35,857 bases of DNA from a virus. Under the pieces are notes generated by a model. The model did no database searches. It was not told where the DNA came from and was given only the letters and a program-made list of their open reading frames with translations. Position numbers and translations under genes: made by a program. Shown here piece by piece: positions 6,262-28,606 of this stretch. Position 1 is the first letter of the stretch. The number at the start of each line of letters is the position of its first letter. The stretch is from the UHGV virus genome UHGV-0063910. One strand, written 5' to 3'.

Positions 6262-6657
6262 TTATTGTATTCTGGCCAGGCCGCGCTCTGTCATTTCAGC
6301 TGCCACACCGGCAGAGACACGGAACGCCGTTCCCGGCAGCACAAATGCCACAGCCTCATCCCGCGTGGCGTGAAGTGCATCAGTATGCAGCGTCACCAGT
6401 GCCACAACCGTGACCAGATCAGCCGTATCAGTCACGGTATCCGGCTGCGCTGATACAACCTCATTTTCATGTCCGGTCAGCACATTTTCCGGGCTGAGAG
6501 GGATATCCTGACCGGCAGTGTCGCCCGTGTCATCAAGCTCTTCTTCCAGTTCTGCCACACGGAGCGCCAGTTCTTCTTTCGTCCCCGTCAGGCTGATATC
6601 ACGGTTCAGTTGTTCACCCAGCGAGCGGAGACGGGCAATCAGTTCATCTTTCGTCAT
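6262..6657 (-). CDS. FI: DNA packaging / head completion protein FI
   Basis: ORF contains MTKDELIARLRSLGEQLNRD..., the lambda gpFI N-terminus; start placed at ATG 6655-6657. Confidence 0.85.
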   Translation of the reverse strand: MTKDELIARLRSLGEQLNRDISLTGTKEELALRVAELEEELDDTGDTAGQDIPLSPENVLTGHENEVVSAQPDTVTDTADLVTVVALVTLHTDALHATRDEAVAFVLPGTAFRVSAGVAAEMTERGLARIQ

Positions 6658-6698: not shown

Positions 6699-7489
6699 TT
6701 ACGCCAGTTGTACAGACACGAACTCATCAGGGTCAGCCAGCAGCATCAGCGGTGCTGACTGAATCATGGTGAACTCACGCGCCGGGTCGCCGGTGGTCAC
6801 CCAGTTTTTCGGGTAACGGGCAGAGGCGTTAATGCCTTCGCGCTGTGCGTCCGCATCCTGAATGCAACCATAGGTGCGCAGACCGCGTGCCTGAGTGTTC
6901 CCCAGCACCATCGTGTTGTCCGGCAGGAAGTTCTTTTTGACGCCGTTTTCCACGTACTGTCCGGAATACACGACGATGGCCACATCGCCATACATTCCCT
7001 TATAAGACACCGCTTTGCCCAGGTCTTTTACCGCTGTCTCCAGCTCGGAATGAGAGCCGCGACGGGTATCCAGCTTCTCCTTGACGGCTTTGAAGGAACG
7101 GAACAGCGCCCAGCCTTTCGGATCAAACACGATGATATTCACCACACCGCTGGCGTTCAGCGCGTAGGCTTCGATATCGTCGGTCGGGTCATACGTGGAC
7201 TTGTCACGCTTGCTCCACTCCGTGCCGCCGGACTGCGTGATGTTATTCGCCTCACTGCGGCCCATATCCACCTCAACCGGATCGAAGGCTTCACCGGTCA
7301 TGGTATATTTGCCCTTAAGCACGGCAGAAACTGCCTGCATCTCTTCGACCTGGGCAATCGCCAGATTTTCATCCAGCATATTCTGCCGAATAATACGGCG
7401 ACGACGGTAAGCCGGGTCAGCCAGGTTCTGCGGATCTTCATCCGGCAGGCGACGCAGGGTCATCTGCGGATTCACCTCATGCTTGGGTT
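6699..7489 (-). pseudogene. E: Major capsid protein E, 3' portion (lambda E codons ~82-341), cut off from its 5' end by the island
   Basis: Translation PKHEVNPQMTLRRLPDEDPQNLADPAYRRRR...DPDEFVSVQLA matches the lambda gpE C-terminal ~260 aa. The reading frame is preceded by a TAA where the island begins. The N-terminal 82 codons are at 18606..18849. Confidence 0.9.
7480..7489. repeat. Left copy of 10-bp direct repeat TGCTTGGGTT flanking the island (putative attL core)
   Basis: Identical 10-mer at 18606..18615. Outer flanks on each side are the two halves of the E reading frame (cctca on the left, tgacata on the right). Confidence 0.8.
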
Positions 7490-7608
7490 ACATGAGTCAA
7501 ATATGAAAGGATGTGAATGATTTTTAGTGATAATATGCTTCAGAATTACTTCCAAAACGAACCGTTGCAATACATCATGCAATACACAGGATATGTAAGG
7601 AGTTATTA

Positions 7609-7794
7609 ATGACTAATTCAGTTGATGTTCAAACCCGTAGAGAAGAATTTGAGCAAGGATATCGAGATGGCTTTCGTTCGGTTCAGGGCAATGTTTTACC
7701 CCCAAAAGCTCCAAGAATTGTACTTGAAACGGGTTCAAAACCTTACGATCAAGGCCATGCTTACGGGGTCAGAGATGCTGGAGGCAAGCGGTAG
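7609..7794 (+). CDS. Small hypothetical protein (61 aa), first gene of the island cargo region
   Basis: ATG at 7609 with AAGGAG 8 nt upstream; AT-rich region; directly upstream of the Abi-like gene. Confidence 0.45.
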   Translation: MTNSVDVQTRREEFEQGYRDGFRSVQGNVLPPKAPRIVLETGSKPYDQGHAYGVRDAGGKR

Positions 7795-7838
7795 CTATCA
7801 CTGGTATAGTCCATAGAAAAAGTGTAAGGGGTCCTAAA

Positions 7839-8600
7839 ATGGATAATTTTCTCAATGAGTTTTCGTCGGATCAGGAACGAGCTAGACATTTAGAGAACTT
7901 ATTAATTAAGGTTGCTCGAGGAGGACCTCGAGATAATAGTGAAAATTATATTTCTCTTAGATCGTACTTTATACAAAACTCTGTATTAAAACTGTTGCTT
8001 CCTGCATTCGTAAGAGAAAACAGAAGCCTAAAAAAATTTTGGGGATTCATACAGCAGAAGTTCCCAACATATAAAGAGCGCGAGTACTTCATCTCAACTG
8101 AATTCACACCGTTATTCGATTATTTCGAAGAGAATCATGCTACGCCTTCGGATGTTCACATAACTGACGGATTAAGAAGCTATGATGAGTGTGGCGTGAA
8201 TGAAGCTTGGGCAAAAGCTCTAGACAGAAGAAACAACGATCCTGAAGGGGCTATTACAGCATCTAGAACATTGCTTGAGACGGTTTGTAAACACATTCTT
8301 GATGATTTAAGTATTACTTATGATAGAAATCTAGACATGAGTGAACTTTATAAACTAACATCCAAAGCACTTAATTTGGCTCCAGATCAGCACGGAGAAC
8401 AGATTTTTAAGCAGATACTTAAAGGTTGCTCATCTGTGGTAAATGGCCTTGGCAATTTACGTAATAAATATGGCGATGCTCATGGCATAGGGAAAAAACC
8501 AATAAAACCTGCTGATCGACATGCTCTTTTAGCTGTTAATCTTGCAGGAAGCATGTCAGTTTTCCTCATTCAAACATGGCAAAACTTGTCAAACAAATAA
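7839..8600 (+). CDS. Abortive-infection-like protein with C-terminal HEPN-type motif (candidate anti-phage cargo)
   Basis: 253-aa ORF with AAGGGG RBS; motif LRNKYGDAHG fits the Rx4-6H HEPN signature. AT-rich composition by eye, at the island edge. Confidence 0.5.
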   Translation: MDNFLNEFSSDQERARHLENLLIKVARGGPRDNSENYISLRSYFIQNSVLKLLLPAFVRENRSLKKFWGFIQQKFPTYKEREYFISTEFTPLFDYFEENHATPSDVHITDGLRSYDECGVNEAWAKALDRRNNDPEGAITASRTLLETVCKHILDDLSITYDRNLDMSELYKLTSKALNLAPDQHGEQIFKQILKGCSSVVNGLGNLRNKYGDAHGIGKKPIKPADRHALLAVNLAGSMSVFLIQTWQNLSNK

Positions 8601-9308
8601 TACCTAATTTTTAACCTCAACTGATTAAATTTCGGTCAAACATCCGTTAGTGAAATACAAGTTGCTATGTAAATACACACCTGCAACTTGTATTACCAAC
8701 CAAGTTTAGCTCCCGATATTACTCATTTCCATTATTTTTCCTTGGCTAGCGCTTCGTCGAACATTTTTACGTGTTATCTTCAAGGTAGATGCTCGCAGAA
8801 ATGATAGTACCACCGATTCGGCGTTGACCATAAGCCAGCAGAACAAGATCCCCTTGGCCGGTTGTATTCGTTACACCACCAAATGCATAGAATGCCTTGT
8901 TATCAGTATCTTGCTTACTCGGCTACCCACAAGATTGTGGGGATAGCATTTGAGCAACGTAGCCTATCGTCACAGAAGCCCCTACTACAAACATCATATT
9001 ACTGGACGCTATACGCGCTCCTGACATTCAGATAGACACAGCAACGCAAATCATTTGCAGCAGACCAGAGCTTTTACTTTCCACAATAACTGGCACAAAT
9101 ACGAATTTCCCGACCCTCAGTAGAGAGCACAAGCGCATCTTTTCCAATATTCTGTTTCCTATGAAAAATACAGAATGTCAGCTCGCGAAATTTACTAGTA
9201 TTCAGATACTTTTCTAATCGAACCTCTCAGTTTAATCGTCATCATTACCTTATAGCTCTGCATTTCGAGTTCCTACAGTAGAGTAAGTGTTCAGTAACCC
9301 AAGTTCAG

Positions 9309-9517
9309 GAGAAAGGAAACGATCATGCCATTTTCAGTCCCAAATAATGCTTTCCATTTCCTTTCTTTTCAGGTGGTGTTTTAAATAAAAACATAAAGTT
9401 ACGGCGAAGAAGAACGGAAACGCCTTAAACCGGAAAATTTCCATAAATAGAGAAAAACTGCGCGCCTTCCGCCCCGTAGTCTGCCGGATTGCCGGAAAGG
9501 ACCCGCCAGCCAGAGCG
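9309..9517. other. Island cos-like site, homologous to the prophage cos
   Basis: About 210 bp alignable with 24828..25037. The ggttacggcgaagaagaacggaaacgccttaaaccggaaaatt block is near-identical. The cosN-like segment (about 9463..9474) differs at several positions and the R1-like hairpin has diverged. Confidence 0.75.
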
Positions 9518-9530
9518 GGCCCTAATTTCA

Positions 9531-9875
9531 TCAACCAATCAACTTATTGCGCCCTTTCAGGGCATTACGCCTGGCGCGTTCAATCTTGAGGCATAACGCC
9601 GCATCAGGTTTTTCCGGTGTGGGTACGAGGCAATAGTTTGATGCTCGCGGGATATTGTTAATCCACTCAACAACCTCGCTTAAATACCAAGCCTTACGCC
9701 CTTCCGTAACCTGCACACGCTCAGGGAACTCTCCACGAGCCTCAAGGTTTAGCAGTGTACGGCGACTCAGGGTTGTAAGTTCCATCACCTGATTCATATC
9801 GACAAGACGCTCGCTTAAGCGCATTTTGTCATCGATATCTAATAGCTCTCGTAGCTGACTATCTCTTTCAATCAT
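9531..9875 (-). CDS. AlpA/MerR-type HTH protein next to the cos-like site (regulator or packaging-specificity factor)
   Basis: 114 aa; segment ELTTLSRRTLLNLEARGEFPERVQV...WYLSEVVEWINN fits the AlpA-family HTH pattern. GAGG RBS; last gene of the E-like/D-like operon. Confidence 0.5.
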   Translation of the reverse strand: MIERDSQLRELLDIDDKMRLSERLVDMNQVMELTTLSRRTLLNLEARGEFPERVQVTEGRKAWYLSEVVEWINNIPRASNYCLVPTPEKPDAALCLKIERARRNALKGRNKLIG

Positions 9876-9884
9876 TCTCGTACC

Positions 9885-10226
9885 TCACACACGTGCCAGC
9901 GGCTGAACAGAAATACCTGAGCCAACAAACGCAGCAACTTTTGCTGATAGTTGTGTTACAGACTCAGGCCAGTTCAGAGCATCAACATTTAAGACGCCGG
10001 TTTTATAAACCTGAGCCTGCGTTTTTGTCGCTGTATCGATTTGTACAGCGGAAACATAAACAGCTTTGCCTGCGCTCGTTCCATCCCATACCACCAGTGC
10101 ACCAGTTGCATCTTCTTGCATCAGTGGCGTAAATGCAGGAATTACCCCTTTATTAGCTGAAAATATCCCCAACGTAGTAACCAGTGCTTCAGTGCCAGCC
10201 ATGAGTTCAGTGTAATGAGTAGCCAT
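9885..10226 (-). CDS. Head decoration protein, lambda gpD-like (island-encoded)
   Basis: 113 aa; aligns with lambda D over TPLM...LVVWDGT..GKAV...YKTG....LNWPE.....AFVGSGIS. AAGGGGGAG RBS; immediately downstream of the E-like gene. Confidence 0.75.
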   Translation of the reverse strand: MATHYTELMAGTEALVTTLGIFSANKGVIPAFTPLMQEDATGALVVWDGTSAGKAVYVSAVQIDTATKTQAQVYKTGVLNVDALNWPESVTQLSAKVAAFVGSGISVQPLARV

Positions 10227-10235
10227 TGCTCCCCC

Positions 10236-11276
10236 TTAACCAATGCGAACGGTAACAAAACGATTGATGCGGGCCGGTATTGGCTGTGGTGCAGAGTGCG
10301 TTTGTACGTACTCAATAGCCGGATCTCCAGGCACAATGTAGTTTTTCGGTGCGAGTTCGGCTTTAGTCAGCCCCATTCGGATTAGCTCCGGATCCTGAAT
10401 GCCACCGTATGCAACGATGCCCTGAAGTGATGTATTGCCAAGAACCATCAAATCAGGATCAAGGAAATATTTTTCTGTTCCGTCCTCGTCGGTATAACGT
10501 CCGCTATACACAACAATAGCCACATCGCCTACGTAACCCTTAAAACTGACGGAATCCCCAAGATTTTTCAGGGCCGTTTCAAGAACGGAATTAGATCCCC
10601 GTCGAGTATCAAGGCAATCTTTTACTGCTTTAAAGGCGCGGTATTTTTTCCATACGTTGCGTCCCATTACGATGATATTTGTAGTCCCTTCGCTGATTTC
10701 TGCGTACTCTTCGATGTCATCATTTGGATCAAATGTTGATAAATCTCTACCGCTCCACTCCGTGCCGCCGGACTGCGTGATAATATTTTGTGGTTTTATA
10801 TTCCAGTCCAGTTCATAACGTTCAATGCCATCGCCCTCAATGATATTTTTCCCCGTTGTGATTGCCTGAACAGCAAGCCATTCAATACGTGCGCGAATGG
10901 CCTGCGCTTGTCTTACCATCGCTCGCTTTATTTTGAAATTGCGTGATGAATATGCATTGAATTGTTCCGGTGATACGCCTGGTTGACGAACGGCTATTTT
11001 ATTTGGGTCTATACTACTTTTTGGCTTCATGTAGCCAGGGCGAATTACTTTTGATTCGTAGCCTTCATCGCGTGATACTTTACTACCAACCATAGGGGAA
11101 CAAAATGCAGCCATCGGGATGTCTGGATCGTCAATAATATCAAGCGCAATATCCCGCGTCTCAAATGTAACGACTCGCTTAAAAAACAGGTTTATAAATA
11201 AAGAGTTAATCTGCCATTGAATATCTTCGGCATTAACAGTCTGTATTAACTCCGCTGGCGAATATAAACCACTCAT
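10236..11276 (-). CDS. Major capsid protein, lambda gpE-like, full length (island-encoded second copy)
   Basis: 346 aa. Conserved blocks ITQSGGTEWS, DTRRGS, GDVAIVVYSG, YG.IQD shared with lambda E and the split prophage E. Divergent from the prophage copy (roughly half of positions differ by eye). Confidence 0.85.
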   Translation of the reverse strand: MSGLYSPAELIQTVNAEDIQWQINSLFINLFFKRVVTFETRDIALDIIDDPDIPMAAFCSPMVGSKVSRDEGYESKVIRPGYMKPKSSIDPNKIAVRQPGVSPEQFNAYSSRNFKIKRAMVRQAQAIRARIEWLAVQAITTGKNIIEGDGIERYELDWNIKPQNIITQSGGTEWSGRDLSTFDPNDDIEEYAEISEGTTNIIVMGRNVWKKYRAFKAVKDCLDTRRGSNSVLETALKNLGDSVSFKGYVGDVAIVVYSGRYTDEDGTEKYFLDPDLMVLGNTSLQGIVAYGGIQDPELIRMGLTKAELAPKNYIVPGDPAIEYVQTHSAPQPIPARINRFVTVRIG

Positions 11277-11461
11277 ATAACCTCTTAATACTTAGTAAAA
11301 GTGTCGTATTAATTTTATCATCTGCCTTGATCGGCATCTTTATGCATTGCTATGCAATATTGTGCAAAGTTTCAATCTTCGTTTATTTATCCGGCGTTAC
11401 GTGTCATTCTGTACAGCGTTACAAGTTCAAAGACATAAATTATTCTCTTTGGTGATGAAAG

Positions 11462-11487
11462 GGTCGGAATATTCCGGCCTTTTTTTT
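11462..11487 (+). terminator. Intrinsic terminator on the plus strand (hairpin + T8)
   Basis: ggtcggaatattccggcc palindrome followed by tttttttt. No plus-strand ORF upstream, so it may end an unannotated small or antisense RNA. Confidence 0.5.
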
Positions 11488-11510
11488 GCGTGGTGTGACG
11501 GACTCAACTG

Positions 11511-11532
11511 ATAAAAGCCGGATTTCTCCGGC
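11511..11532 (-). terminator. Intrinsic terminator for the island replication operon (minus strand)
   Basis: On the minus strand gccggagaaatccggc followed by ttttat, immediately after the ssb-like stop. Confidence 0.5.
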
Positions 11533-11540
11533 CTGTGCGT

Positions 11541-11947
11541 TCAGAATGGAATATTGTCACCGTAGAGATCATCCCCTCCCGCTGGTGGTGTGTTGCCCTG
11601 TGTGCCTGTGGTTTTACGTCTGTTCCCGCCAGGTCGCACCGTTCGCGCACTGATTACGCTGTCTGCGATAACCTGCCAGCGCTGCCGCGTTTCACCGTTC
11701 TGTCCAGTCCACTGGCTCACCTGCATGTTACCCGCCACGCTCAGGAGTTCGCCTTTGTGATGCTTTGCCAGCGTGTCGGCTTGTCTGCCAAACGCCAGGA
11801 CAGATAACCACATCGTCGCCTGACCGTCATCCGACTGCAGGGCAGTGATACCGCCATACGCGCCAGCGTCATGGGGATGCCCTTGCTGGTCTGTTTTGTC
11901 TGCGGGTCGTCCACCAACCTCCCGTAAACTGATATTTGCGCCGTCAT
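11541..11947 (-). pseudogene. ssb: ssb-like gene split over two reading frames (frameshift near 11838..11850)
   Basis: The 11947 frame gives an SSB-like N-terminus (ISVYGRLVDDPQTKQ...). A different frame gives the OB-fold C-half (WLSVLAFG...KGELLSV...WTGQNGETR) and an acidic tail ending DNIPF. Confidence 0.55.
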
Positions 11948-12201
11948 GCTGCCTGCTCTCCGGACTTAATATTGATGGTTGTCACTTCCTCCGCTTCAGC
12001 AATCTCCCGTTCGGTCAGAGTGGCAAAGTTTGCAGCCGCCGTTGTCATGAATGCGCTAATCAGTTCGGGATGTGCTTTCGCGTATCCTTCACCGGCGTTG
12101 CGATCTATTGCCTTAATCGCCACCCTTAGCCAGTGTTCAGCCATATCAAGGGCGCGGTAATGTGGCTTTATATGTTTGTTCAGTTTTCCTGATGTGTGCA
12201 T
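11944..12201 (-). CDS. Hypothetical protein (85 aa), between the ori and the ssb-like gene
   Basis: ORF whose stop overlaps the ssb-like start; weak RBS. Confidence 0.4.
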   Translation of the reverse strand: MHTSGKLNKHIKPHYRALDMAEHWLRVAIKAIDRNAGEGYAKAHPELISAFMTTAAANFATLTEREIAEAEEVTTINIKSGEQAA

Positions 12202-12246
12202 TTTTATTTTTACCCCCTCGTTTAAAAAGTTTTGAAATGTGGTGCA

Positions 12247-12475
12247 CCTCCTCTACCTCTCTACCTAATCATCTTTCAGGTCAGTAATGGCGCGGCTTTC
12301 AGATGGGTAGAGGGCTTTCGGGGCCCTCTACCCATCCTCTACCCGCCCCTCACAAATGACCTTAATCATGGTGGAGGAGGTAGAGGGCTTTTATTTGCCT
12401 TCTACCTGACCCTCTACCTGCTTATCATATTGAATAATATATATTTATTTTCTTTAGGTAGAGGAGGTAGAGGGC
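12247..12475. repeat. Iteron array (about 9 copies of GGTAGAGG/CCTCTACC, both orientations) flanking an AT-rich stretch: putative island origin of replication
   Basis: Iterons at about 12251-12265, 12306-12313, 12325-12344, 12379-12386, 12399-12420, 12457-12473; AT-rich core 12421-12456; immediately 3' of the primase-helicase gene. Confidence 0.75.
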
Positions 12476-12487
12476 TTTTGTCTAAAA

Positions 12488-14239
12488 TTATAAAAACGCG
12501 TCGCAATCCTCTGTTGTTGTCACATTGGTTTGCGTAAGTCCTTTAACCCTGCGCGTTATATATTCACATCCGTAAACTTTCGCCGCTGGCTTCATGGCCT
12601 TGCTGAAATCAGCCACGTTTAGCGGCTTGCTTCTGCCTGCGTATGCCATAAACGCCAGATAGACGCGGTAAAGGCTGTTTCTGGTCGTGTACTTCACGGA
12701 ATCGCCACCGCCACCCATCATCAGGCCGCGCGCTTCCTCCAGAAAATTCAGAAACTGGCAAAACTCAATAACCGGATCCGTCTGTTGCTTTATCGCCAGT
12801 GCTTCTTCACCGTCGCGCTGTTCAATCAACAAATGTCGCGCCTTTTCTGGATCAGCAAAGTTTGCCAGCAATCTGCGGATAATCACGGGGATTTCAGCCG
12901 CGACCTTCTCCGGTAAATCCTTGTCCTTTTCTGCCTCGCTAACGATATTGTCGAAGCGGAAAATTACGCGACGACGTGACACACCTCCGGCCCGTTCGGT
13001 GAATATCATCGGGTTATTGTTGGTAGCCAGCACCACCGCCCTGATTACCTCCGTAAAACGCTTTTCATATTTCGGGTTTATTTCCACGGGGTCGCCGCCC
13101 GTGATTTTCTTGATGCCCGTGCCTTCGCCTGTATATTTCGGCTGGTCAGCCAGGACGATAAGACGTCTCCCGACAACCTGAGCACGCCCACCAGCATCAT
13201 CAAGCGAAGTCATTTCAGCGCTTACCGTGTTCTGTTTCCCTGCCAGAAGGCTGGCTATGTGCGTGAATGTACTCTTTCCGCTCCCGCCGTCTCCGGTGGC
13301 CTCAATAAACATCTGCCAGTCGTACCGGTTCGCCATAATCATGTACAGCGCGGCACATATACGCATCATCTTGCGCGGGTCTTTTCCGGCTGCGTGATCA
13401 AGCCATTTATGAAAGTTTGGCGCGTTGTCGCGGATGTTCTCCCCTGGTGCTGGTGGCGTGTACTCAATGCCGTTGTGCGTGGTGATCCAGTTCTCCGGCG
13501 AGTGCGGGGAAAATTCCCCCGTTTTCAGGTCAAGCACACCATTGGCGAACGGTAGCAAATCACCGGACGGCTCCCCCATGGGGTCGGCAATAACTTTTAA
13601 CGCCTCCACGGCGTTATTAATTGCACGCTTGCTGAATGTGGCCCTGTGCTCTGAATAGATCGCCACCATTTCGCGGCTCAGCTCCATTGTGCTGACCGGA
13701 CACCATACCCCGCCGCGCCATACGTGGACGATTTCACTTTCTGCATGAACACACACACCATCAAAGCGATCGGCAAGTAGTTGTGCACGTTCACTGTCTG
13801 CCATCTGTGAAAGTTGCGCCTTTTGCTTCGTCGGAAGATTAAGCACCAGACTTTCCCCACGCTCGCATTCCTCTTTGAGTCGCGGCAACTGGTCGGATAA
13901 ATCCACGGGGCTGGTGTCAGTAATCCCCGCGTATTCGTGTACGGTCTTCACTCCAGCCACAGCCAATAACGTAACAATCTGCGTCATGCTGTGCTCTGTG
14001 ATATGTCCTGCGCGGTAAACACGCACACACTGACGATCTTCATCAATGATCCGGTAATCGGTGATATTTTTCAGTTGCTCATCAGCCAGCACGACAGGCG
14101 GCACATCGTCGGCGGCAATATGTTTACCCGCCCATTCCTGCCACTCTTTCGCATGGCTCCACGCATCACTACCTGCAAAGATGATTACCTCTGTCAGTCT
14201 GTCGCGTGGCTGTTTTTTTAAGTTCGGTGCCAGTTTCAT
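12488..14239 (-). CDS. Primase-helicase (D5/P4-alpha-like, SF3 helicase with Walker A)
   Basis: 583 aa; Walker A motif GDGGSGKST in the C-terminal half; location between regulatory genes and ori typical of satellite replication modules. Confidence 0.8.
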   Translation of the reverse strand: MKLAPNLKKQPRDRLTEVIIFAGSDAWSHAKEWQEWAGKHIAADDVPPVVLADEQLKNITDYRIIDEDRQCVRVYRAGHITEHSMTQIVTLLAVAGVKTVHEYAGITDTSPVDLSDQLPRLKEECERGESLVLNLPTKQKAQLSQMADSERAQLLADRFDGVCVHAESEIVHVWRGGVWCPVSTMELSREMVAIYSEHRATFSKRAINNAVEALKVIADPMGEPSGDLLPFANGVLDLKTGEFSPHSPENWITTHNGIEYTPPAPGENIRDNAPNFHKWLDHAAGKDPRKMMRICAALYMIMANRYDWQMFIEATGDGGSGKSTFTHIASLLAGKQNTVSAEMTSLDDAGGRAQVVGRRLIVLADQPKYTGEGTGIKKITGGDPVEINPKYEKRFTEVIRAVVLATNNNPMIFTERAGGVSRRRVIFRFDNIVSEAEKDKDLPEKVAAEIPVIIRRLLANFADPEKARHLLIEQRDGEEALAIKQQTDPVIEFCQFLNFLEEARGLMMGGGGDSVKYTTRNSLYRVYLAFMAYAGRSKPLNVADFSKAMKPAAKVYGCEYITRRVKGLTQTNVTTTEDCDAFL

Positions 14240-14535
14240 TTTTTGCCCCTGAATGCGTTAATCATGCTTTTCATTTTCTGGATGTTTCCCCGCGCTTTTT
14301 CCCTGCTGATGGGGTTACTGCGGGGTGCGGCATATACCAGGGAAAAATCACGCCGGAACTGATAAACAGGCATCACGCAGTCATAGCTATACCCCTCACG
14401 GCGGTAAGTGATGCGCCGTTCTGCCACGCCTTTAATCGTTACCGTGCCGCCGTATTTATCGCGGTAAATATCGCCGTTCATAAATTCAGGCCGAGCGGGG
14501 CCGCTGGCAATAAAGCCAGAATTTTTCATTTCCAT
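14236..14535 (-). CDS. Hypothetical protein (99 aa), translationally coupled to primase
   Basis: Stop overlaps the primase ATG (ATGA). Confidence 0.5.
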   Translation of the reverse strand: MEMKNSGFIASGPARPEFMNGDIYRDKYGGTVTIKGVAERRITYRREGYSYDCVMPVYQFRRDFSLVYAAPRSNPISREKARGNIQKMKSMINAFRGKK

Positions 14536-14552
14536 ATTATTTATTCCTCGAC

Positions 14553-14774
14553 TTAACTCGACTTATTTGATAGCAGGGCACTATTTATTGCGTCATTGAG
14601 TTTTTCTGCTGCTTCATCAATAAGTGACAACAGGCCATAAGCAATATTTGCATCTTCATTGTCATTTATGCAATCAAGCCACATATTTAATATTGCTTTT
14701 GCTGAATTATTTAAAGTTAATGAACTTTCTGCACATGCTAACAATTTAAAAAAGACTTCCCGTTCTGTATTCAT
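14553..14774 (-). CDS. Hypothetical small protein (73 aa)
   Basis: ORF in the tightly packed minus-strand operon; AT-rich codons. Confidence 0.4.
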   Translation of the reverse strand: MNTEREVFFKLLACAESSLTLNNSAKAILNMWLDCINDNEDANIAYGLLSLIDEAAEKLNDAINSALLSNKSS

Positions 14775-14966
14775 TTAATCCCCCACCAGCTTACTTTCTT
14801 CCTCAATCAAAAAACTAGCGACACTTCCCGAAAGACGCGCCAGTAGGCTCGCCAGTGCGGATATATCAGCATCTGTAATTTTGTTCGGGTATACCTCAAG
14901 AAGGCGGCAAATAATTTCTGTCTGGTGCGCACGTTCAGCGGCTTCGTGTAATGTAATTTCCTGCAT
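14775..14966 (-). CDS. Hypothetical small protein (63 aa)
   Basis: Abuts neighbouring ORFs in the same operon. Confidence 0.4.
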   Translation of the reverse strand: MQEITLHEAAERAHQTEIICRLLEVYPNKITDADISALASLLARLSGSVASFLIEEESKLVGD

Positions 14967-15151
14967 TAATGCACCTCTTTTAATTCATACACTGCTGAAA
15001 TAATGACTTGTGATAAGCCATATTCTGATGATTCGCTTCTCACCGCAGCAATAGCCGTCTGAACATTAACAGCCTTCACGTTCTGAGCGATACCAATTGT
15101 GTGGCCTAGTGGGTTAACCGCACGAGCAAATACACGGAAGGTTTTAAGCAC
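14966..15151 (-). CDS. Hypothetical small protein (61 aa)
   Basis: Abuts neighbouring ORFs in the same operon. Confidence 0.4.
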   Translation of the reverse strand: MLKTFRVFARAVNPLGHTIGIAQNVKAVNVQTAIAAVRSESSEYGLSQVIISAVYELKEVH

Positions 15152-15508
15152 GGCATACCTCCTGACGAATACGGGCGGCGAATATCATCACGCAGCCAGT
15201 TGGGGATTGTTGGCGGGCTTCCTGTTCGCTGGTGGCCTCGATGTGTATTACGCGTGGTTGTGCGGTGCTCAGGGCGATAAAACGCCAGATGAAATTGTTT
15301 TCGCATTTCTGAATAAACAGCGTGTTTTCTTCACGCCCTTTCCAGAAAGCCGCAGTATAGCCCATCTCCTTAACCATCTTGCGGGCATCAACCAGCGTGT
15401 CAGCGGCAACATGTACCGTAGTTGCTCCATCTGCCATGCGGTCGTGGTGTAGTGCCAGAAAGGTGTATATAAATTTAGGGTGAGTTTGGGTATGCTGTGT
15501 TCCAGCCA
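15144..15508 (-). CDS. Hypothetical protein (121 aa), first gene of the island early operon
   Basis: ATG at 15506-15508 with GAGG RBS. The track ORF upstream of this ATG (to 16058) is antisense to the regulator gene and Ser/Arg-rich, so treated as spurious. Confidence 0.5.
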
Positions 15509-15595
15509 TAATCGTTACCTCGTTTAACGGTTTGGTTAGAAGCCCGGTTAGTGTTCGCGCACTGCCGGGTTTCGTCGTTTTTATGAATCGATCAT

Positions 15596-15699
15596 TGTGA
15601 GATACATAGCGACCATAATGTGAGATATACATTATATTGTGGTGATATACATTGCAAGTGTTTTTATATCTCACTTTTGTGTATAGTGATATACACATA
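15596..15699. promoter_or_regulatory. Divergent control region with 5 copies of a GTGA(G/T)ATA(T)ACA(T) operator-like repeat
   Basis: Copies at about 15596-15608, 15619-15632, 15640-15651, 15665-15674 (inverted), 15687-15699, between the minus-strand operon start and the plus-strand regulator. Confidence 0.55.
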
Positions 15700-15717
15700 A
15701 CAAATTGGTGATTAACT

Positions 15718-16020
15718 ATGTCTGTATACAAAAATGCAAAATCGCAAATGACAACGATCAGGGTTCCCCACGATGTTATGGAGGGCATGGAATCCGTAAA
15801 ACTGGACGGCGAAAGCAACGCCGGATTCATAGTAACCGCCATGCGCGGTGAGATCGCCCGCCGCCAGGCAGAAGGAAGCGGAGAAAATCCCCTCGTGTCT
15901 TCACTGGATGCCTTAGCTAAGGTCGAACAAATCGGCATCAAGGCAGCGGAGGAAATCGGGCAACTCGTAGCCGTCGCTCGTGAAGAACTCCAGCGGCGTA
16001 AAGCCAAAGAATCTGAATAA
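15718..16020 (+). CDS. Putative ribbon-helix-helix-like DNA-binding regulator (candidate island repressor)
   Basis: 100 aa; N-terminus QMTTIRVPHDVMEGMESVKLDGESNAGFIVTAMRGEIARRQ fits a strand-helix-helix layout; immediately downstream of the operator repeats. Confidence 0.4.
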   Translation: MSVYKNAKSQMTTIRVPHDVMEGMESVKLDGESNAGFIVTAMRGEIARRQAEGSGENPLVSSLDALAKVEQIGIKAAEEIGQLVAVAREELQRRKAKESE

Positions 16021-16370
16021 TTAGTATCAGCGCCGTGATGTGAGTAACTACGGCGCATTGCTATGTAAATACTGGCAATAAACAGAAAAGGTAGTTCTAC
16101 TCCGAATAATTTTATCTGACACTACTCCTGAACTAACATGCGCTTATCTTACAGGATATAAATATAAATCCATAAAATCACGATTAAATAAAGTCGCTCC
16201 AAACATAAACCACACCCAACGCTTAACAAGATAGCAACAAACAGGTAAATAACTTGCAGAAATATTTATCGCAAGGATTATCATTATTAATGACAAATCA
16301 CTTTACCAAGTCATTCCCCTCTCTTATCATAAAGAGAAAGTAATAAATAAGTTAAGGGAGTTAGAATGCT

Positions 16371-16907
16371 ATGAATCTAAAAAAAATAGCCACAAACACA
16401 AAAAACAAGATAACAGAAACATTTAATAAACTTATATTGGAGGCATCTAAAACCCCCACGCAAGATGAAATTAAAATACTTGAGAGAAGGAGTAAGAAGT
16501 TTAATTACTCCTTTTTCTCATACGCAGTCACAGGAGCTATAATAGTTTTTTGCTCTCAACCATTAATTAAATACGCAAACCCAATACTTATTTTATTGAG
16601 TGGTCTGTTACTGTCTATCATCATTATCATTCTCAGAATGATTTATATTTCACAAGCGAATGCATCATGGACAACCAAAAAACGCTCACATGTACTAGTT
16701 CATTTTCTTTCTGCATGTTTCATAGCATCAACATTGACGTTGCTATATCAGGCTTACGATAATAACATCACACACAAATTGTACTGTAAAAATATACAAC
16801 AACTTATTGAAAAAAGGATAGAAATAGAAAAAAACATCAGCATATTCAGTGGGATGCAATGCACCCCGGTATATGATTACTCTTTATTTGGATTTAATCT
16901 CTTATAA
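16371..16907 (+). CDS. Small membrane protein (about 3 TM helices), AT-rich cargo
   Basis: 178 aa; hydrophobic stretches FFSYAVTGAIIVFCSQPLI, ILILLSGLLLSIIIIILRMIYI, VLVHFLSACFIASTLTLLY; Lys/Asn/Ile-rich; preceded by GGGAG. Confidence 0.5.
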   Translation: MNLKKIATNTKNKITETFNKLILEASKTPTQDEIKILERRSKKFNYSFFSYAVTGAIIVFCSQPLIKYANPILILLSGLLLSIIIIILRMIYISQANASWTTKKRSHVLVHFLSACFIASTLTLLYQAYDNNITHKLYCKNIQQLIEKRIEIEKNISIFSGMQCTPVYDYSLFGFNLL

Positions 16908-16927
16908 AGAATGTTATTACTGATTTG

Positions 16928-16961
16928 AGTACAAATTCTCAAATCAGTAATTCATAATATT
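16928..16961. terminator. Bidirectional terminator hairpin (13-bp stem) between the membrane-protein gene and alpA
   Basis: ttactgatttgag ... ctcaaatcagtaa inverted repeat with an 8-nt loop and T-rich flanks on both sides. Confidence 0.55.
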
Positions 16962-16976
16962 TTATTCTGAGATAAT

Positions 16977-17213
16977 TTAAACTACCCACTCACCTCGAAT
17001 CCATGCCTGCACTTCTGAAAGACGATATGCAACAGCAGTGGAACCAATCTTGATCCGCTTAGGAAATTTTCCTTCCTTCTCCAGCTTCCAGCGTGTGCTG
17101 TTCGCAAGAGTGGTTAGCTCCCGACATTCTTTCTCACGGATCATTCGGTCAATGTTAGGAATGTACTCCAGACCCTTTTTATCAACAATTGCCATTTTTT
17201 TCATGTTAACCAA
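16977..17213 (-). CDS. alpA: AlpA-family HTH regulator / excisionase-like protein
   Basis: 78 aa; ELTTLANSTRWKLEKEGKFPKRIKIGSTAVAYRLSEVQAWI matches the AlpA pattern; directly downstream of int, overlapping it by 8 nt. Confidence 0.7.
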   Translation of the reverse strand: MVNMKKMAIVDKKGLEYIPNIDRMIREKECRELTTLANSTRWKLEKEGKFPKRIKIGSTAVAYRLSEVQAWIRGEWVV

Positions 17214-18441
17214 CCTTTTGTTTGAGGATTGTCACTTTTGAATCAGCACCTGCGATGCTATTGAGATATGTAGTCCAGAGTTCCAGAGCATCCAGTTTTT
17301 TAGCCATAAACTTACTCCGGTTGTAAACACCTGCCACGCCAGGTAGCGCATGGCCTAACAGTTGTTCTACTACATAAAATTCAACACCGAGATCACTTAG
17401 ATGAGTAGATAGCGTTCTTCTAAGGTCGTGTAGTGACCATTGTTTTTCATGGCCCAAACGTTTACCGATTTTCCCCCCAATCTTGCTTACGCTTTCTCTA
17501 ATTCGCAGACTTCCCAGCACATAACCAGTATGTTTTGTCTCTTCGTGAACATCCGTTACCCACTGTCGTAGAATTTCAGGTACTGGTCTGACGATTTCAA
17601 CACCAGTTTTTGAGTGATCTTTTGGTACAGTCCAAACCCAACTTTCGAGATCCCATTCGCTCCATTCTGATAATCGGGCTTCACTCATTCGACATCCAAA
17701 TACTGTACAAAGCACAAACATTTTTCGCGTGTATTCAGACATTAGTTTTAAATCAGGCTCGACAAAAATTGCCTTCCAGAGCTGGCCGAGTTCGGCTTCA
17801 TCCAGAACCCGATCCCGCTTACCTGCAATCTGCCCCACATCACTCATGCGCAAATCCTTTAAAGCATCACACGTCGCGTACTGGCGTACCCGACAAAAAC
17901 GAAGAGCTAATTTAGTGTCAGAAAAAACATACGCCGCCATAACTGGTGCATTACGTTTAATTCGGTCAAAACAGTCCAGCCATTCATATAGGTGAGTGTC
18001 ATTTACGGGCAAATGACCGATATAGGGAAAGATATGCTTTCGAAATCTGCCAAGCGTTACAGCATGAGTTTTACGACGCACCTTACAGTAATTTTCATAC
18101 CAGTAATTTAGTGCATCCTCCACTGTGACCGGCTTTAAGCGTTCTTCAGCCTGAATCTTAATCTGGATACGCGGATCACGTTTGTCAGCCAACCAACCAC
18201 GGCACTCGTCGCGCTTTTCCCTTGCCTGTTTGAGTGACATATCAGGATATTTACCCAACGTTAGCCAGACCGGAGCAGCCCGGCCACCTGCTAACCTGTA
18301 GAAGAAAACAAAGCTTACAGCCCCTTTAGTACTCACACGAATAGAAAGCCCCTTTCCATCAGCAATGGTGATCTGCTTTTCTCTGGGTTTCCCCAGATAT
18401 CCTTTAAGCGCTTTGTCGCTCAGTTTGTTCTCGCCAGCCAT
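17206..18441 (-). CDS. int: Tyrosine integrase (P4-type)
   Basis: C-terminal catalytic region with HDLRRT...LGH...Y residues; sits next to the right repeat. Start placed at ATG 18439-18441 (MAGENKLSDK...); the track ORF extends to 18492. Confidence 0.85.
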   Translation of the reverse strand: MAGENKLSDKALKGYLGKPREKQITIADGKGLSIRVSTKGAVSFVFFYRLAGGRAAPVWLTLGKYPDMSLKQAREKRDECRGWLADKRDPRIQIKIQAEERLKPVTVEDALNYWYENYCKVRRKTHAVTLGRFRKHIFPYIGHLPVNDTHLYEWLDCFDRIKRNAPVMAAYVFSDTKLALRFCRVRQYATCDALKDLRMSDVGQIAGKRDRVLDEAELGQLWKAIFVEPDLKLMSEYTRKMFVLCTVFGCRMSEARLSEWSEWDLESWVWTVPKDHSKTGVEIVRPVPEILRQWVTDVHEETKHTGYVLGSLRIRESVSKIGGKIGKRLGHEKQWSLHDLRRTLSTHLSDLGVEFYVVEQLLGHALPGVAGVYNRSKFMAKKLDALELWTTYLNSIAGADSKVTILKQKVG

Positions 18442-18605
18442 TTTTAGCCCCAAAAAGCAATACAAGCTGCAATACAGAGATGATTGCAACACACAGATAA
18501 CGAGGAAAATTCAGTGAAAGCACCAGATAAACTTATTCTTTATTATCAAAAGATTAAGTGTAAAAACCAGCAACTACACGAAAGCCTCAGAAAGCCATGC
18601 TAAGT

Positions 18606-18615
18606 GCTTGGGTTT
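18606..18615. repeat. Right copy of 10-bp direct repeat TGCTTGGGTT (putative attR core)
   Basis: Identical to 7480..7489; lies inside the codons KPKH of the E 5' fragment. Confidence 0.8.
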
Positions 18616-18849
18616 GACATAACCCGGCGTAAATTCAGAGGTGGAGCCGCCACGGGATCGGATAACCTCACCGGAAACAATCGGCGAAACGTACAGCGCC
18701 ATGTTTACCAGTCCCGGAATTTGTGAGAGATAGACTTTTTCCGTGGTGAAAGGATAGGTTTCACGGAAAAACAGGCGCAGAAACAGCGGATCGAACTTAA
18801 AGTGATGCTGGGTCGATGCCAGTAATTCTGCAGTTGTATATACAGACAT
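18606..18849 (-). pseudogene. E: Major capsid protein E, 5' portion (codons 1-~82), reads into island DNA
   Basis: MSVYTTAELLASTQHHFKFDPLFLRLFFRETYPFTTEKVYLSQIPGLVNMALYVSPIVSGEVIRSRGGSTSEFTPGYVKPKH matches the lambda gpE N-terminus, then continues as LAWLSEAFV-stop in island sequence (track ORF ends at 18574). Confidence 0.9.
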
Positions 18850-18904: not shown

Positions 18905-19237
18905 TTAAACGATGCTGATTGCCGTTCCGGCAAACGCGGTCCGTTTTTTCGTCTCGTCGCTGGCAGCCTCCGGCCAGAGCACATCCTCATAACGGAACGA
19001 GCCGGACTTGTAGAACGTCAGTGTGGTGCTGGTCTGGTCAGCAGCAACCGCAAGAATGCCAACGGCTGCACCGTCGGTGGTGCCATCCCACACAACCAGC
19101 TTACGGATAGTGCCATCCAGCATCAGTGGGGTCATTGCAGGCGTTTTCGCACTCAATCCGCCAGGCGCAATTGCTGTATGAGCTGGATCACTGTTACCCA
19201 GCGGCTGGTAATGGTTAAACTCTTCTTTTGTCGCCAT
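18905..19237 (-). CDS. D: Head decoration protein D
   Basis: 110-aa ORF ...[30 protein letters not shown]... matches lambda gpD. Confidence 0.9.
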
Positions 19238-19246
19238 AACTGCCTC

Positions 19247-19654
19247 TTATACCGGTAAAGCTTCAGGTGTATTAAGTAATTCTTTATTGGTATCAGATGC
19301 CAGGTTACCTGCAGCCAGCGGTGCCGGTGCACCCTGCATCAGACGATCCAGCGCAGTGTCACTGCGCGCCTGTGCACTCTGTGGTGCTGCGGCCAGAATG
19401 CGGCGGGCCGTTTCCACGGTCATTCCGGGGGTTTCTGCCAGAACGCGCGCCTGTTCTTCGCGTCCGTGAGCCTCCTCACAGTTGAGGATCCCCATAATGC
19501 GGCTGTTTTCTGCCGCAACCGCTGCGGTGATCTGTGCGTTCACATCCGGCTGCGCCGCGCTGGCGTTTTCGCCCTCCTTCGCAGGCTCCACGGTGGTGAT
19601 GTCAGCCTGCGAAGCAGTGGCTGAAACAGTTGTTGATTGAGTCTCTTTGGTCAT
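19247..19654 (-). CDS. Nu3: Scaffolding protein Nu3 (in-frame internal start within C)
   Basis: Internal ATG at 19652-19654 begins MTKETQSTTVSATASQAD..., as lambda Nu3, sharing the C-terminus of C. Confidence 0.75.
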   Translation of the reverse strand: MTKETQSTTVSATASQADITTVEPAKEGENASAAQPDVNAQITAAVAAENSRIMGILNCEEAHGREEQARVLAETPGMTVETARRILAAAPQSAQARSDTALDRLMQGAPAPLAAGNLASDTNKELLNTPEALPV

Positions 19655-20558
19655 TCGCCCTCCTGAGAGACGGGATTTACGTGCATCCAGTGCATCACGC
19701 ATGACGGTGATCGCATCGCTGCTGTTAACAAGTTCATCAGCCAGTCCGGCATCAATGGCCTCCTGACCGCTGTACACTGCAGCCTCGGTATCCAGCACAG
19801 CCTGCACAGACAGGCCGGTATATGCCGACACCTTCTGCGCAAACATCTGGCGGGTTGCGTCCATCCGGGACTGCAGTGTCTCCCGGACGTCATCCGGAAG
19901 ATGGCTGTAGGGATTGCCATCCACCTTATGGCTGCCGCTGTAAATCAGCGTGATTTCCACACCCTGTTTCTCCAGGACAGCACCGTAATTACTGTGAGCC
20001 ATCATGACGCCGATGGAGCCTGTCCGGGCGGTCTGCGTGACCAGACGCCGGGAGGCGGCACTGGCAAGCAGCTGACCTGCACTGCAGTTCATGTCGTTGG
20101 CCAGCGCCCATACCGGTTTTATGTCACGCACACGGGCGATGATGTCAGCGCAGTCAAATGCCCCCGCCACCATTCCGCCTGGCGTGTCCATATCGAGCAG
20201 AATGCCGTCCACCATCGGGTCGCTGGCAGCCTGTTGCAGACGGGCGATAATGCCGTTGTAACCGGTCATCCCCGAGTACGGCTGCAGCGCCCGCGTCCGG
20301 CTGACCAGCGTGCCGGACACCGGCAGCACGGCGATGCCGTTCATGACCTGATAACTCCGGGCCTGTCGTGGTCCGTCATCATCACCGGATAATGCCAGCG
20401 TCGCGAGTGCCTCCTGGGCAGTCAGGCTGTCGCCGGACACCGCATCCGTCAGGCGGCTGATCCCAAGCTGGCCTGCAAGCGCACAAAAGAAAACCCGCGC
20501 ATAGGCGGGTTCAAGCATCAGCGGCTCATTAAAGGCCATGCTGGCAATATGCGGGAGA

Positions 20559-20578
<20 letters not shown>
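19247..20578 (-). CDS. C: Head maturation protease / scaffold C (ClpP-like), GTG start
   Basis: Sequence from TAELRNLPHIASMAFNEPLMLEPAYARVFF... matches lambda gpC; GTG at 20576-20578 with GGAGGAG RBS. The track ORF extends upstream into B. Confidence 0.85.
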
Positions 20579-24259
<3,681 letters not shown>

Positions 24260-24285
<26 letters not shown>

Positions 24286-24805
24286 TCAGCAACCCCAGTA
24301 TCAGTTCATCCAGCGCGGCTGCTTTGTTCATGGCTTTGATGATATCCCGTTTCAGGAAATCAACATGTCGGTTTTCCAGTTCCGGAAAACGCCGCTGCAC
24401 CGACAGGGGGATCCCGTCGAGAATACTGGCAATTTCACCTGCGATCCGCGACAACACGAAAGTACAGAATGCGGTTTCCACCACTTCAGCGGAGTCTCTG
24501 GCATTCTTCAGTTCCTGTGCGTCGGCCTGCGCACGCGTAAGTCGATGGCGTTCGTACTCAATAGTCCCTGGCTGGAGATCTGCCTCGCTGGCCTGCCGCA
24601 GTTCTTCAACCTCCCGGCGCAGCTTTTCGTTCTCAATTTCAGCATCCCTTTCGGCATACCATTTTATGACGGCGGCAGAGTCATAAAGCACCTCATTACC
24701 CTTCCCACCACCTCGCAGAACGGGCATTCCCTGCTCCTGCCAGTTCTGAATGGTACGGATACTCGCACCGAAAATGTCAGCCAGCTGCTTTTTGTTGACT
24801 TCCAT
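24260..24805 (-). CDS. Nu1: Terminase small subunit Nu1
   Basis: 181-aa ORF MEVNKKQLADIFGASIRTIQNWQEQGMPVLRGGGKGNEVLYDSAAVIKWYAERD... essentially the lambda Nu1 sequence. Confidence 0.95.
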
Positions 24806-24827
24806 TGTTCATTCCACGGACAAAAAC

Positions 24828-25037
24828 AGAGAAAGGAAACGACAGAGGCTAAAAAGCCCGTTTTCAGCACCTGTCGTTTCCTTTCTTTTCAGGGGGTGTT
24901 TTAAATAAAAACATTAGGTTACGGCGAAGAAGAACGGAAACGCCTTAAACCGGAAAATTTTCATAAATAGCGAAAACCCGCGAGGTCGCCGCCCCGTAAC
25001 GGTCTGGATCACCGGAAAGGACCCGCCAACGACTTTC
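24828..25037. other. Prophage cos site (cosB R elements, cosN with 12-nt cohesive end AGGTCGCCGCCC at 24983..24994, cosQ side)
   Basis: Reverse complement contains GGGCGGCGACCTCGCGGGTTTTCGCTATTTATGAAAATTTTCCGGTTTAAGGCGTTTCCGTTCTTCTTCGCCGTAAC, matching the lambda left end/cos as recalled. Confidence 0.9.
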
Positions 25038-25217
25038 GCGTGCAGGCATTAAAAATTTTGCAGTTCCATGCCTAGTTGAAACCTCGATTTCTATAACATC
25101 CAATTTTGTAAATTTAGATATAGCTCAACTTTTCCCAATGTTTTCAAGTGTATAAAAACAATTGGCGTTACGCCATAACACTATACTTAGGATAAGTAAA
25201 GATTTTAAGGAGTTTTA

Positions 25218-26285: not shown

Positions 26286-26847
26286 CTTTCCAGCCTACGC
26301 GTTTCTTTAAGGCTGTTCTGACTTCAAGCCTGAGATTCGCTATTGGAATATTTTCCGCAATAATATTCCATAACTCAAATCGGGGCTTGCTTTTTATTCC
26401 TTTGGAATAGCCCCATCGTTCAAGTACGTCGATACATTCATCTTTCCAAAGCAATTGAGCGAGCATCAATGTGTCATGGTTTCGATTAAGCTTTTCTCCA
26501 CGCATGTGCTTTATAAGAATGGCGCCTTTTGGCCCAACAGAAACCGTTTTAACGCCCCACCAACCTGGGATTAACTTTAATGCTCCCTCAAGGTGTTTCT
26601 CAGCTACGACAAGAGTAACCTTGTCCATTACAGAAGAATAATGCTTGATTTGAAGAGGCAAACGCTCCAAAGAGTCATATTCACTTTTGAGCTCGTACCC
26701 GTGTATAACACCATTTATTACAGCAATGTCTGCTCTACTGGCGCCAAGGGATATGGAAAATTCATCGACCACAAGGCAGTCTGGATCTAAATGCGATTCT
26801 TTCAAAAGCTTATGATGCACCGCGAACCTAACATCTTGATCTTTCAT
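26227..26847 (-). CDS. Hypothetical protein (206 aa) with possible PD-(D/E)xK nuclease-like motif, AT-rich cargo gene
   Basis: ATG with AAGGAG RBS; segment VVDEFSISLGASRADIAVINGVIHGYELK has the D...(E)xK spacing of restriction-endonuclease-like folds. Its 3' end overlaps the 355-aa gene convergently by 59 bp. Confidence 0.55.
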   Translation of the reverse strand: MKDQDVRFAVHHKLLKESHLDPDCLVVDEFSISLGASRADIAVINGVIHGYELKSEYDSLERLPLQIKHYSSVMDKVTLVVAEKHLEGALKLIPGWWGVKTVSVGPKGAILIKHMRGEKLNRNHDTLMLAQLLWKDECIDVLERWGYSKGIKSKPRFELWNIIAENIPIANLRLEVRTALKKRVGWKVKAWQAESAPTNKAVSRLT

Positions 26848-28478: not shown

Positions 28479-28581
28479 TGTTTCGCCGCCGACAAAAGGC
28501 CGGGACGTTAAATGTCAGAAATCAGGCTCACGGGGTAATTTAACGACAAAGCACGGAGTTGATGCTCCCCGCAAGCCTGGA

Positions 28582-28606
28582 ATAAAAAAGCCAGCATGTA
28601 GCTGGC
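28582..28606 (-). terminator. tR'-like intrinsic terminator of the short late leader (6S-like) transcript
   Basis: On the minus strand gccagc-tacat-gctggc followed by tttttt, between the Q stop and the holin start. Confidence 0.55.

Follow-up and report, generated by a model that had tools for sequence, protein, structure and literature searches.

How can a lambda-like prophage make its head when the gene for its major capsid protein lies in two pieces, and what is the DNA that separates them? Here, we analyzed this question in the UHGV virus genome UHGV-0063910 (35,857 nucleotides, the whole of which is called the window below), in which capsid gene E is split by an insert at 7480..18614. 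Together, our results make it very probable that the insert is a helper-embedded phage-inducible chromosomal island (HE-PICI) of site group E:Phage_cap_E:80, a mosaic relative of the published element Eco567.11capE (hereafter 11capE), which works by an excision that restores E. The first-pass annotation, made from the letters of the window, had regarded a satellite within the capsid gene of its own helper as unusual. That view is not sustained: the phenomenon and the element family have already been published, the name HE-PICI dates from 2022/2023, and 201 instances are reported at this same site (Tommasini, Mageeney & Williams 2023, NAR Genom Bioinform 5:lqad036; PMC10111431). The window is another copy.

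The split capsid gene and its attachment sites

The first-pass annotation had described a lambda-like helper gene E split by 11.1 kb of DNA between perfect 10-bp direct repeats, and this description holds. The repeat, TGCTTGGGTT, occurs exactly twice in the 35.9-kb window, and the distance between the two att cores is 11,125 bp. The left copy lies where it had been placed, whereas the right copy, given as 18606..18615, is located 1 bp lower. That one base matters for the reconstruction, as a join at 18616 gives a frameshifted product and a join at 18615 is correct. The parts of the locus are as follows.

6699..7489, minus strand: C-terminal fragment of helper gene E, from the core to the stop codon, without a start
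7480..7489, no strand: attL core, the 10-bp identity block TGCTTGGGTT in its left copy
7567..7586, minus strand: doubled motif TGTATTGCatgaTGTATTGC on the other attP arm; at its full length of 23 nt, it ends 81.5 bp upstream of the attP centre
18457..18476, minus strand: doubled motif TGTATTGCagctTGTATTGC on the int-side attP arm; the full 23-nt motif begins 131.5 bp downstream of the attP centre
18605..18614, no strand: attR core, the same block in its right copy
18605..18849, minus strand: N-terminal fragment of helper gene E, codons 1 to ~82
18905..29477, minus strand: helper late operon upstream of the island, with the Q antiterminator (28788..29477), holin, Rz, cos, Nu1, A, W, B, C and D

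Joining 6699..7489 to 18615..18849 on the minus strand, across one copy of the core, yields 1026 nt in frame and an intact lambda-type E of 341 aa that reads ...GYVKPKHEVNPQMTL..., as had been predicted. The core corresponds to nt 236-245 of E (codons 79-82). In the split state, the reading frame of the N-terminal fragment enters island DNA and stops at 18574 after 9 further codons, and the island attP offers no substitute for the missing part of E. The GC content is ~0.57 in the flanks versus 0.32-0.54 in the insert. RefSeq annotates both pseudogene halves of E in NRG857c and VCSW7, and labels the NRG857c counterpart of 6699..7489 "major capsid protein, missing N-terminus". The order of the late region is Q, holin, Rz, cosN, Nu1, A, W, B, C, D and E', followed by the island and then 'E, FI, FII, Z, U, V, G/T and H. 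The late operon from D through Nu1 and cos is 99.25% identical to a RefSeq-annotated stretch of NRG857c, and all helper late genes in the window are lambda-like in length.

The two genes next to the right repeat had been read as a P4-type tyrosine integrase and AlpA, and Pfam domains confirm both.

17206..18441, minus strand: HE-PICI tyrosine integrase (int), 411 aa from the MAGENKL start (Pfam Arm-DNA-bind_3 and Phage_integrase); the mechanical open reading frame (ORF) reaches a GTG at 18492 (17206..18492)
16977..17213, minus strand: alpA, of the excisionase / transcriptional activator family (Pfam Phage_AlpA, E = 3e-15; PHROG 2790)

Excision is predicted to leave an attP junction of the form ...CATGCTAAG-TGCTTGGGTT-ACATGAGTC..., or ...GAAAGCCATGCTAAG-TGCTTGGGTT-ACATGAGTCAA... 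when written with other flank lengths, and a repaired-E attB of the form ...CACCTCA-TGCTTGGGTT-TGACATAACC.... The attP core on 10 bp reads AACCCAAGCA and is flanked by two doubled TGTATTGC arm motifs, which are the only two in the window and both lie on the int strand. In the published signature, the doubled motif tgTGTATTGCantgTGTATTGCa occurs twice in the same orientation, once 81 +/- 2 bp upstream of the attP centre and once 132 +/- 2 bp downstream of it (PMC10111431), and the offsets of 81.5 and 131.5 bp in the window thus match the HE-PICI spacing. Together, this att anatomy and the precedent of 11capE (PMC10111431) support the proposal that a P4-type tyrosine integrase inserted the island site-specifically at the 10-bp core inside helper E. 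The island carries an E gene of its own; at the homologous site this gene differs from the core at several positions, so self-targeting is not expected, and the published study says likewise (PMC10111431).

Island genes and the published relative 11capE

11capE is an 11-kb island of E. coli NRG857c. It interrupts the lambda-E-like capsid gene in prophage 50icd, brings a capsid gene of its own and has an attL/attR identity block of 10 bp (PMC10111431). Upon mitomycin C treatment, the composite of helper and satellite excises and replicates, and precise excision of the satellite then occurs at ~2 h; satellite excision amounted to 42-98%, and the predicted attB and attP were confirmed by quantitative PCR and deep sequencing (PMC10111431). 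No virions or plaques were recovered for either partner (PMC10111431). The same study describes 491 additional HE-PICI instances over 14 late-gene sites, a plan of four ordered zones (Integration, Bro, Replication and Late), C4/isrK P4-like immunity RNAs in some HE-PICIs, and many helpers that look truncated (PMC10111431). A literature search for experimental follow-up of this paper found none, only papers that cite it.

We retrieved the NRG857c element as locus L001 (match H42) and compared it with the window. The two integrases share 99.5% identity over 411 aa. No base differs in the 110 bp of the attR arm that were compared, and on the attL side the match is exact up to and including the 11th island base. 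Both islands interrupt the same codons of a lambda-type E with the same 10-bp core at both ends, both have equally spaced doubled TGTATTGC motifs, and both share one orientation and zone order (int-alpA, variable zone, primase-ori-ssb, E-D-HTH-cos and cargo, HTH being a helix-turn-helix gene), while the flanking helper late genes are 99.3-99.7% identical. Inside the islands, only 15390..18614 is alike (99.25%), whereas identity falls to 82% in the late zone, and of the primase just a 302-bp patch aligns (74%). The cargo is DUF262+HEPN in 11capE and AbiJ-like here, ssb is intact there and frameshifted here, and the lysis and moron region of 50icd differs from that of the window helper. For the segment from the cargo to the Icd-like gene, the nearest relative is the VCSW7 island (~91-92%), which has the same Abi cargo. 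Judged from these alignments, the island backbone is a mosaic.

The remaining features of the island, from the alpA side to attL, are as follows.

15144..16907, no strand: variable regulatory zone, in the place of the published "Bro zone"
16371..16907, plus strand: predicted membrane protein, in the variable zone
15718..16020, plus strand: YlcI/YnfO-family gene (NCBIfam YlcI_YnfO_N)
~15144..15434, minus strand: Icd-like gene, after the RefSeq annotation of the homologous NRG857c segment
14966..15151, 14775..14966 and 14553..14774, minus strand: three small co-oriented ORFs upstream of the primase, function unassigned
14236..14535, minus strand: DUF4222 gene, upstream of the primase gene
12488..14239, minus strand: replication primase, 583 aa (D5_N, DUF5906 and Pox_D5-like; PHROG 864, E = 5e-162)
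12306..12478, no strand: putative ori, with three perfect 13-bp iterons GGTAGAGGGCTTT at 12306, 12379 and 12466 (spacing 73 and 87 bp)
11541..11947, minus strand: ssb, frameshifted here by a 4-bp deletion near 11830
10236..11276, minus strand: island major capsid protein of the lambda-E family, 346 aa (Pfam Phage_cap_E, E = 3e-42)
9885..10226, minus strand: island head decoration protein of the lambda-D family, 113 aa (Pfam HDPD, E = 3e-16; PHROG 49)
9531..9875, minus strand: second AlpA-family helix-turn-helix protein, adjoining the cos-like site (Pfam Phage_AlpA; PDB 8c3t, E = 4e-11)
9357..9508, minus strand: cos-like site of the island, with 87% identity to the cos region of the helper
7839..8600, plus strand: AbiJ-like / Abi_C abortive-infection family protein (Pfam Abi_C, E = 2e-23; PADLOC AbiJ, E = 2e-22)
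7609..7794, plus strand: accessory ORF of 61 aa, cargo, opposite to the backbone orientation

The backbone genes are all co-oriented with the helper late operon (E, int, alpA, primase, island E and island D are on the minus strand). In the zone next to alpA, Pfam and NCBIfam scans detected no Bro-N domain, and an Rfam scan of the whole window at gathering thresholds gave zero hits, so that C4/isrK RNAs were undetected. A mechanical ORF of 304 aa at 15144..16058 on the minus strand is probably not a real gene over its full length; just its 3' part matches the Icd-like gene of related islands, and the YlcI/YnfO-family gene lies inside it on the opposite strand. The small ORFs and the DUF4222 gene upstream of the primase stand in the same annotated order in VCSW7. 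The primase-helicase with an iteron ori proposed by the first-pass annotation was recovered as a D5_N/DUF5906 primase with three perfect iterons, and the putative ori lies directly downstream of the primase gene, which is the published PICI ori position. In ssb, the deletion has cut a GACTGACT repeat to GACT, and the genes of NRG857c and VCSW7 are intact with 149 aa; the ssb of this copy could be a real pseudogene.

It had been claimed that the helper cannot make its own capsid protein while the island is integrated. Helper E is indeed disrupted, but the claim needs qualification, since the island brings E and D homologs that the first-pass annotation had not noticed. Island E and helper E are 42% identical, with nucleotide patches of 74-87% identity. 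The best PDB match of the island capsid protein is 3bqw (E = 1e-122), and lambda gpE is weaker (E = 4e-77). The protein in 3bqw is presumably from CFT073. The far greater closeness to 3bqw than to lambda gpE suggests that island E is an old capsid gene of the PICI lineage and not one lately captured from this helper. We found the E/D pair in the examined islands of three E. coli strains and on one metagenome contig, and no island ORF of TerL or portal size remains unassigned. As the authors of the 11capE study note, the island capsid gene may act as a backup for the interrupted one (PMC10111431).

The cos-like site of the island, proposed earlier from its letters, was confirmed beside its helper counterpart.

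24877..25028, minus strand: helper cos region, with the exact lambda cosN GGGCGGCGACCT at 24983..24994

The right half of the island cosN has diverged (GGGCGGAAGGCG), and the cosB side stays close to that of the helper. In 11capE, which is reported to share a 258-bp cos-like segment with its helper (PMC10111431), cosN is diverged as well (GGGCGTCAGGCG, versus GGGCGGCGACCT in the helper and lambda). 11capE aligns further into cosB than the window island, whose similarity ends earlier. In the satellite EcCICFT073, cosN and cosQ are conserved and the diverged cosB is read by Rpp-TerS; the window island and 11capE show the reverse. A structure search found no match to Rpp for the HTH gene beside cos, and an AlpA-family structure was matched instead.

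Between the island cos and attL lies a cargo slot (7490..9356), which holds the AbiJ-like gene and the 61-aa ORF here, DUF262+HEPN in NRG857c, and other ORFs together with an Abi-like gene on a metagenome contig (L002, described below). Only the first 46 island bp (7490..7535) are conserved between islands. The slot looks like a hotspot for defence genes.

These features place the island within the HE-PICIs. The host element carries Q, holin, Rz, Nu1, A, D and tail genes, and one of its late genes is disrupted. On its near-identity to the type member in a pairwise comparison, the integrase is assigned to the 11capE subclade. The 10-bp identity block lies at ~codon 80 of E, the doubled motifs have the HE-PICI spacing, and int points inward and is followed by alpA. 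Of the four published zones, Integration, Replication and Late are clear; the alpA-side zone holds the membrane protein, YlcI/YnfO-family and Icd-like genes, with no Bro-N domain or C4/isrK RNA detected. The island also has the makeup of Gram-negative PICIs: its 11,125 bp between the att cores fall in their range of ~10-20 kb, it carries int, alpA, primase/ori and a cos-like signal, and it lacks genes for terminase, tail and lysis.

EcCICFT073 (Fillol-Salom et al. 2018 ISME J; 2019 Mol Cell, PMC6739421) shares int, alpA and a primase with a downstream ori; it likewise has an E-family capsid gene of its own and a cos site, lacks terminase genes, measures ~11 kb and has lambdoid helpers, but it sits at a chromosomal site apart from the helper. 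Capsid-forming PICIs (cf-PICIs; Alqurainy et al., bioRxiv 10.1101/2022.09.08.507074) also encode their own HK97-fold major capsid protein. They carry a full set with terminase subunits, portal, protease and connectors, whereas the window island has E and D homologs only, and we rejected cf-PICI membership on the absence of a complete capsid/packaging module. A P4-like satellite was rejected as well: no Psu, Sid, Delta or Ash/Epsilon family hits were found, and the helper is lambdoid, not P2-type. The likeness to P4 is limited to the P4-type integrase, the D5_N primase and the Icd-like gene.

Occurrence in other genomes and the helper prophage

To analyze the distribution of the island and its junctions, we used a collection of 5,426 complete E. 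coli genomes. The right junction (810 bp covering int, the N-terminal fragment of E, and D) was found in 171 genomes with a coverage of at least 80%, and these genomes come from unrelated hosts and countries. The island-side 600 bp alone, the int arm, was found in 176 genomes (~3%), in 174 of them at full length. From this ranking, 40 records were taken evenly, and 39 of them are full length; each of these 39 listed matches has its end over a "major capsid protein" feature. The first-pass annotation had asked whether the same island occurs at other loci, and among these matches it does not. As every listed full-length match abuts the capsid gene, this integrase lineage is effectively dedicated to gene E.

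The annotation had also called for prophages with an intact E at this position, and these exist. LF82, NGF1 and other strains carry the reconstructed empty site (400 bp on each side of one core) with 100% identity over its 800 bp, and 3,157 genomes have an uninterrupted homolog; by this match, the empty sites are evidently the natural "before" state. On the left side, the junction together with the Abi cargo is found in only 4 genomes; elsewhere the match ends 46 bp into the island, which indicates a variable cargo slot. Coverage of the island stays below 80% in every complete E. coli genome of the collection, and the best reaches 79% at 94% identity.

For the predicted 36-nt attP junction, a search of the IMG/VR viral contigs gave no match. 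The exact junction was found on one human-gut metagenome contig, L002 (ORSG01002381, positions 6599..6634). This contig is 8,651 bp long, has a low coverage of ~2.9x, and carries the order pri-ssb-E-D-HTH-cargo-attP-int-alpA, as expected only when a related HE-PICI is present as an excised circle, as a concatemer or as a tandem copy.

Beyond E. coli, integrase relatives were found in the GTDB species representatives at three loci only, in Kosakonia, Cedecea and Kluyvera. The Kluyvera locus has a partial integrase and no capsid context. The relatives in Kosakonia sp. S29 and Cedecea sp. S5-13 are 88% and 83% identical, respectively, and both loci (L003, 5193..7233, and L004, 5202..7233, respectively) run from D through E codons 1-82, which end in GYVKPK, to the attR arm, the doubled motif and int; another island E follows downstream. 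Their cores are variants (AGCCAAAGCA and AACCAAAGTA). Given this common layout, the E site is conserved across genera despite the varying core sequence.

The helper carries further segments of its own. At 25218..26847, between Rz and cos, lies a low-GC (~0.40), moron-like segment with an opposite-strand ORF of 355 aa (PF14350 "Beta_protein") and an ORF of 206 aa without a family match; its counterpart in prophage 50icd of NRG857c differs. In the early region, 32719..34245 encodes a 508-aa large serine recombinase (Resolvase, Recombinase and Zn_ribbon_recom), annotated as ybcK-like in NRG857c. Beside it, a low-GC segment holds a 347-aa ORF (31326..32369), the NRG857c counterpart of which is annotated as an alpha/beta hydrolase.

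Proposed mechanism, rival explanations and meaning

We then propose a model for the action of this HE-PICI on its helper. Upon SOS induction, the composite of helper and island would leave the chromosome and replicate, with the island being copied passively, as shown for 11capE. Late transcription dependent on helper Q may then read through the E fragment into int and alpA. Such read-through would trigger a late and precise excision of the island, of the kind shown for 11capE, and would thereby rebuild E. The freed island may replicate from its own primase and iteron ori, and presumably it would be packaged via its cos-like site by the helper terminase into helper-derived particles. The net effect would be a "regulated gene integrity" that delays capsid production by the helper, to the advantage of the satellite; the yield of the helper may be reduced, and the island E, D and Abi cargo may play roles in this. 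The published proposal for 11capE is similar, namely cis-regulation through passive replication and late read-through, with "regulated gene integrity" serving the satellite (PMC10111431). The skin element in sigK and phi10403S in comK, examples of regulated gene integrity or "active lysogeny", also split a gene without a replacement, and precise, timed excision restores it. In the HE-PICI case, by contrast, the split gene is that of another mobile element, the helper phage, and the timing is to the benefit of the satellite and not of the cell, as the authors discuss.

Several points weigh against this account. The excision experiments concern 11capE and none of them this copy, and the failure to obtain virions or plaques for 11capE leaves packaging and transfer as inferred steps (PMC10111431). 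Consensus promoter and terminator scans of the island gave counts no different from those of shuffled sequence, a chance level that speaks neither for nor against late read-through. The island cosN is unlike that of the helper at about half its positions, ssb is frameshifted, the alpA-side zone is one without a detected Bro-N domain or C4/isrK RNA, and, with only part of the helper prophage in the window, its immunity, replication and tail-tip genes may or may not be intact.

Some of these points would also fit an abandoned, inactive HE-PICI, a fossil in a defective prophage that no longer excises or transfers. The frameshifted ssb, the partial prophage in the window, the many truncated-looking HE-PICI helpers and the type element without virions (PMC10111431) are in keeping with such a fossil. 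However, int, alpA, primase, E and D are full-length ORFs, the att cores show no mismatch, the two arm motifs are undamaged and correctly spaced, the helper late genes keep lambda-like lengths, and ssb may well be dispensable given the host single-stranded DNA-binding protein; we consider inactivity unlikely. A reading of the element mainly as a prophage-disabling or defence island, in which the host benefits from the broken capsid gene and Abi while satellite mobility is secondary, draws on the AbiJ-like cargo here, the DUF262+HEPN in the same slot of NRG857c and, once more, the missing virions (PMC10111431). We hold it to be very unlikely, given that E-restoring excision was seen on induction of 11capE (PMC10111431), that the replication module, cos-like site and capsid genes typical of transferable PICIs are kept, and that a spread over many lineages and genera with mosaic backbones implies horizontal transfer.

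Two further explanations concern how the split arose, and neither carries any appreciable probability. An assembly artefact or chimeric join of two prophages was an a priori possibility raised by the first-pass annotation, with nothing more in its favour. It is refuted by recurrence in independent complete genomes: the int, E' and D junction is identical in the 171 complete genomes and is also present in Kosakonia and Cedecea, the E fragments fit exactly in frame, and the same halves are annotated in NRG857c and VCSW7. Entry by homologous recombination between island E and helper E could appeal to the patches of 74-87% identity, but it is rejected on the anatomy of the junctions. These lie outside island E, which is 2.7 kb inside the island and mismatches the core, and the island ends are classical attP arms by int with precisely spaced motifs. 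Moreover, the same breakpoint occurs in the 171 genomes and across genera with a diverged E.

Within the account of an HE-PICI that restores E by excision, it is tempting to speculate that the island E, D and diverged cosN are functional. HE-PICIs of the E group would then keep the helper capsid gene broken to let early procapsids of satellite E and D form on helper portal, protease and scaffold, and a satellite-specific cos variant would be cut and packaged preferentially. The diverged cosN common to 11capE and the recurrent E/D pair are compatible with this idea and do not require it, and we regard it as quite unlikely. If true, the strategy would be "partial capsid-forming" and enforced in cis, which would set it apart from Rpp-type PICIs and cf-PICIs.

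In HE-PICIs, one mobile element controls another in cis, with the satellite physically gating its helper's capsid gene. To this family the window adds a further mosaic genotype with AbiJ-like defence cargo, confirmation in complete genomes, and a natural attP junction in a gut metagenome. It also adds that cosN is diverged and cosB conserved in the family, the reverse of EcCICFT073/Rpp.

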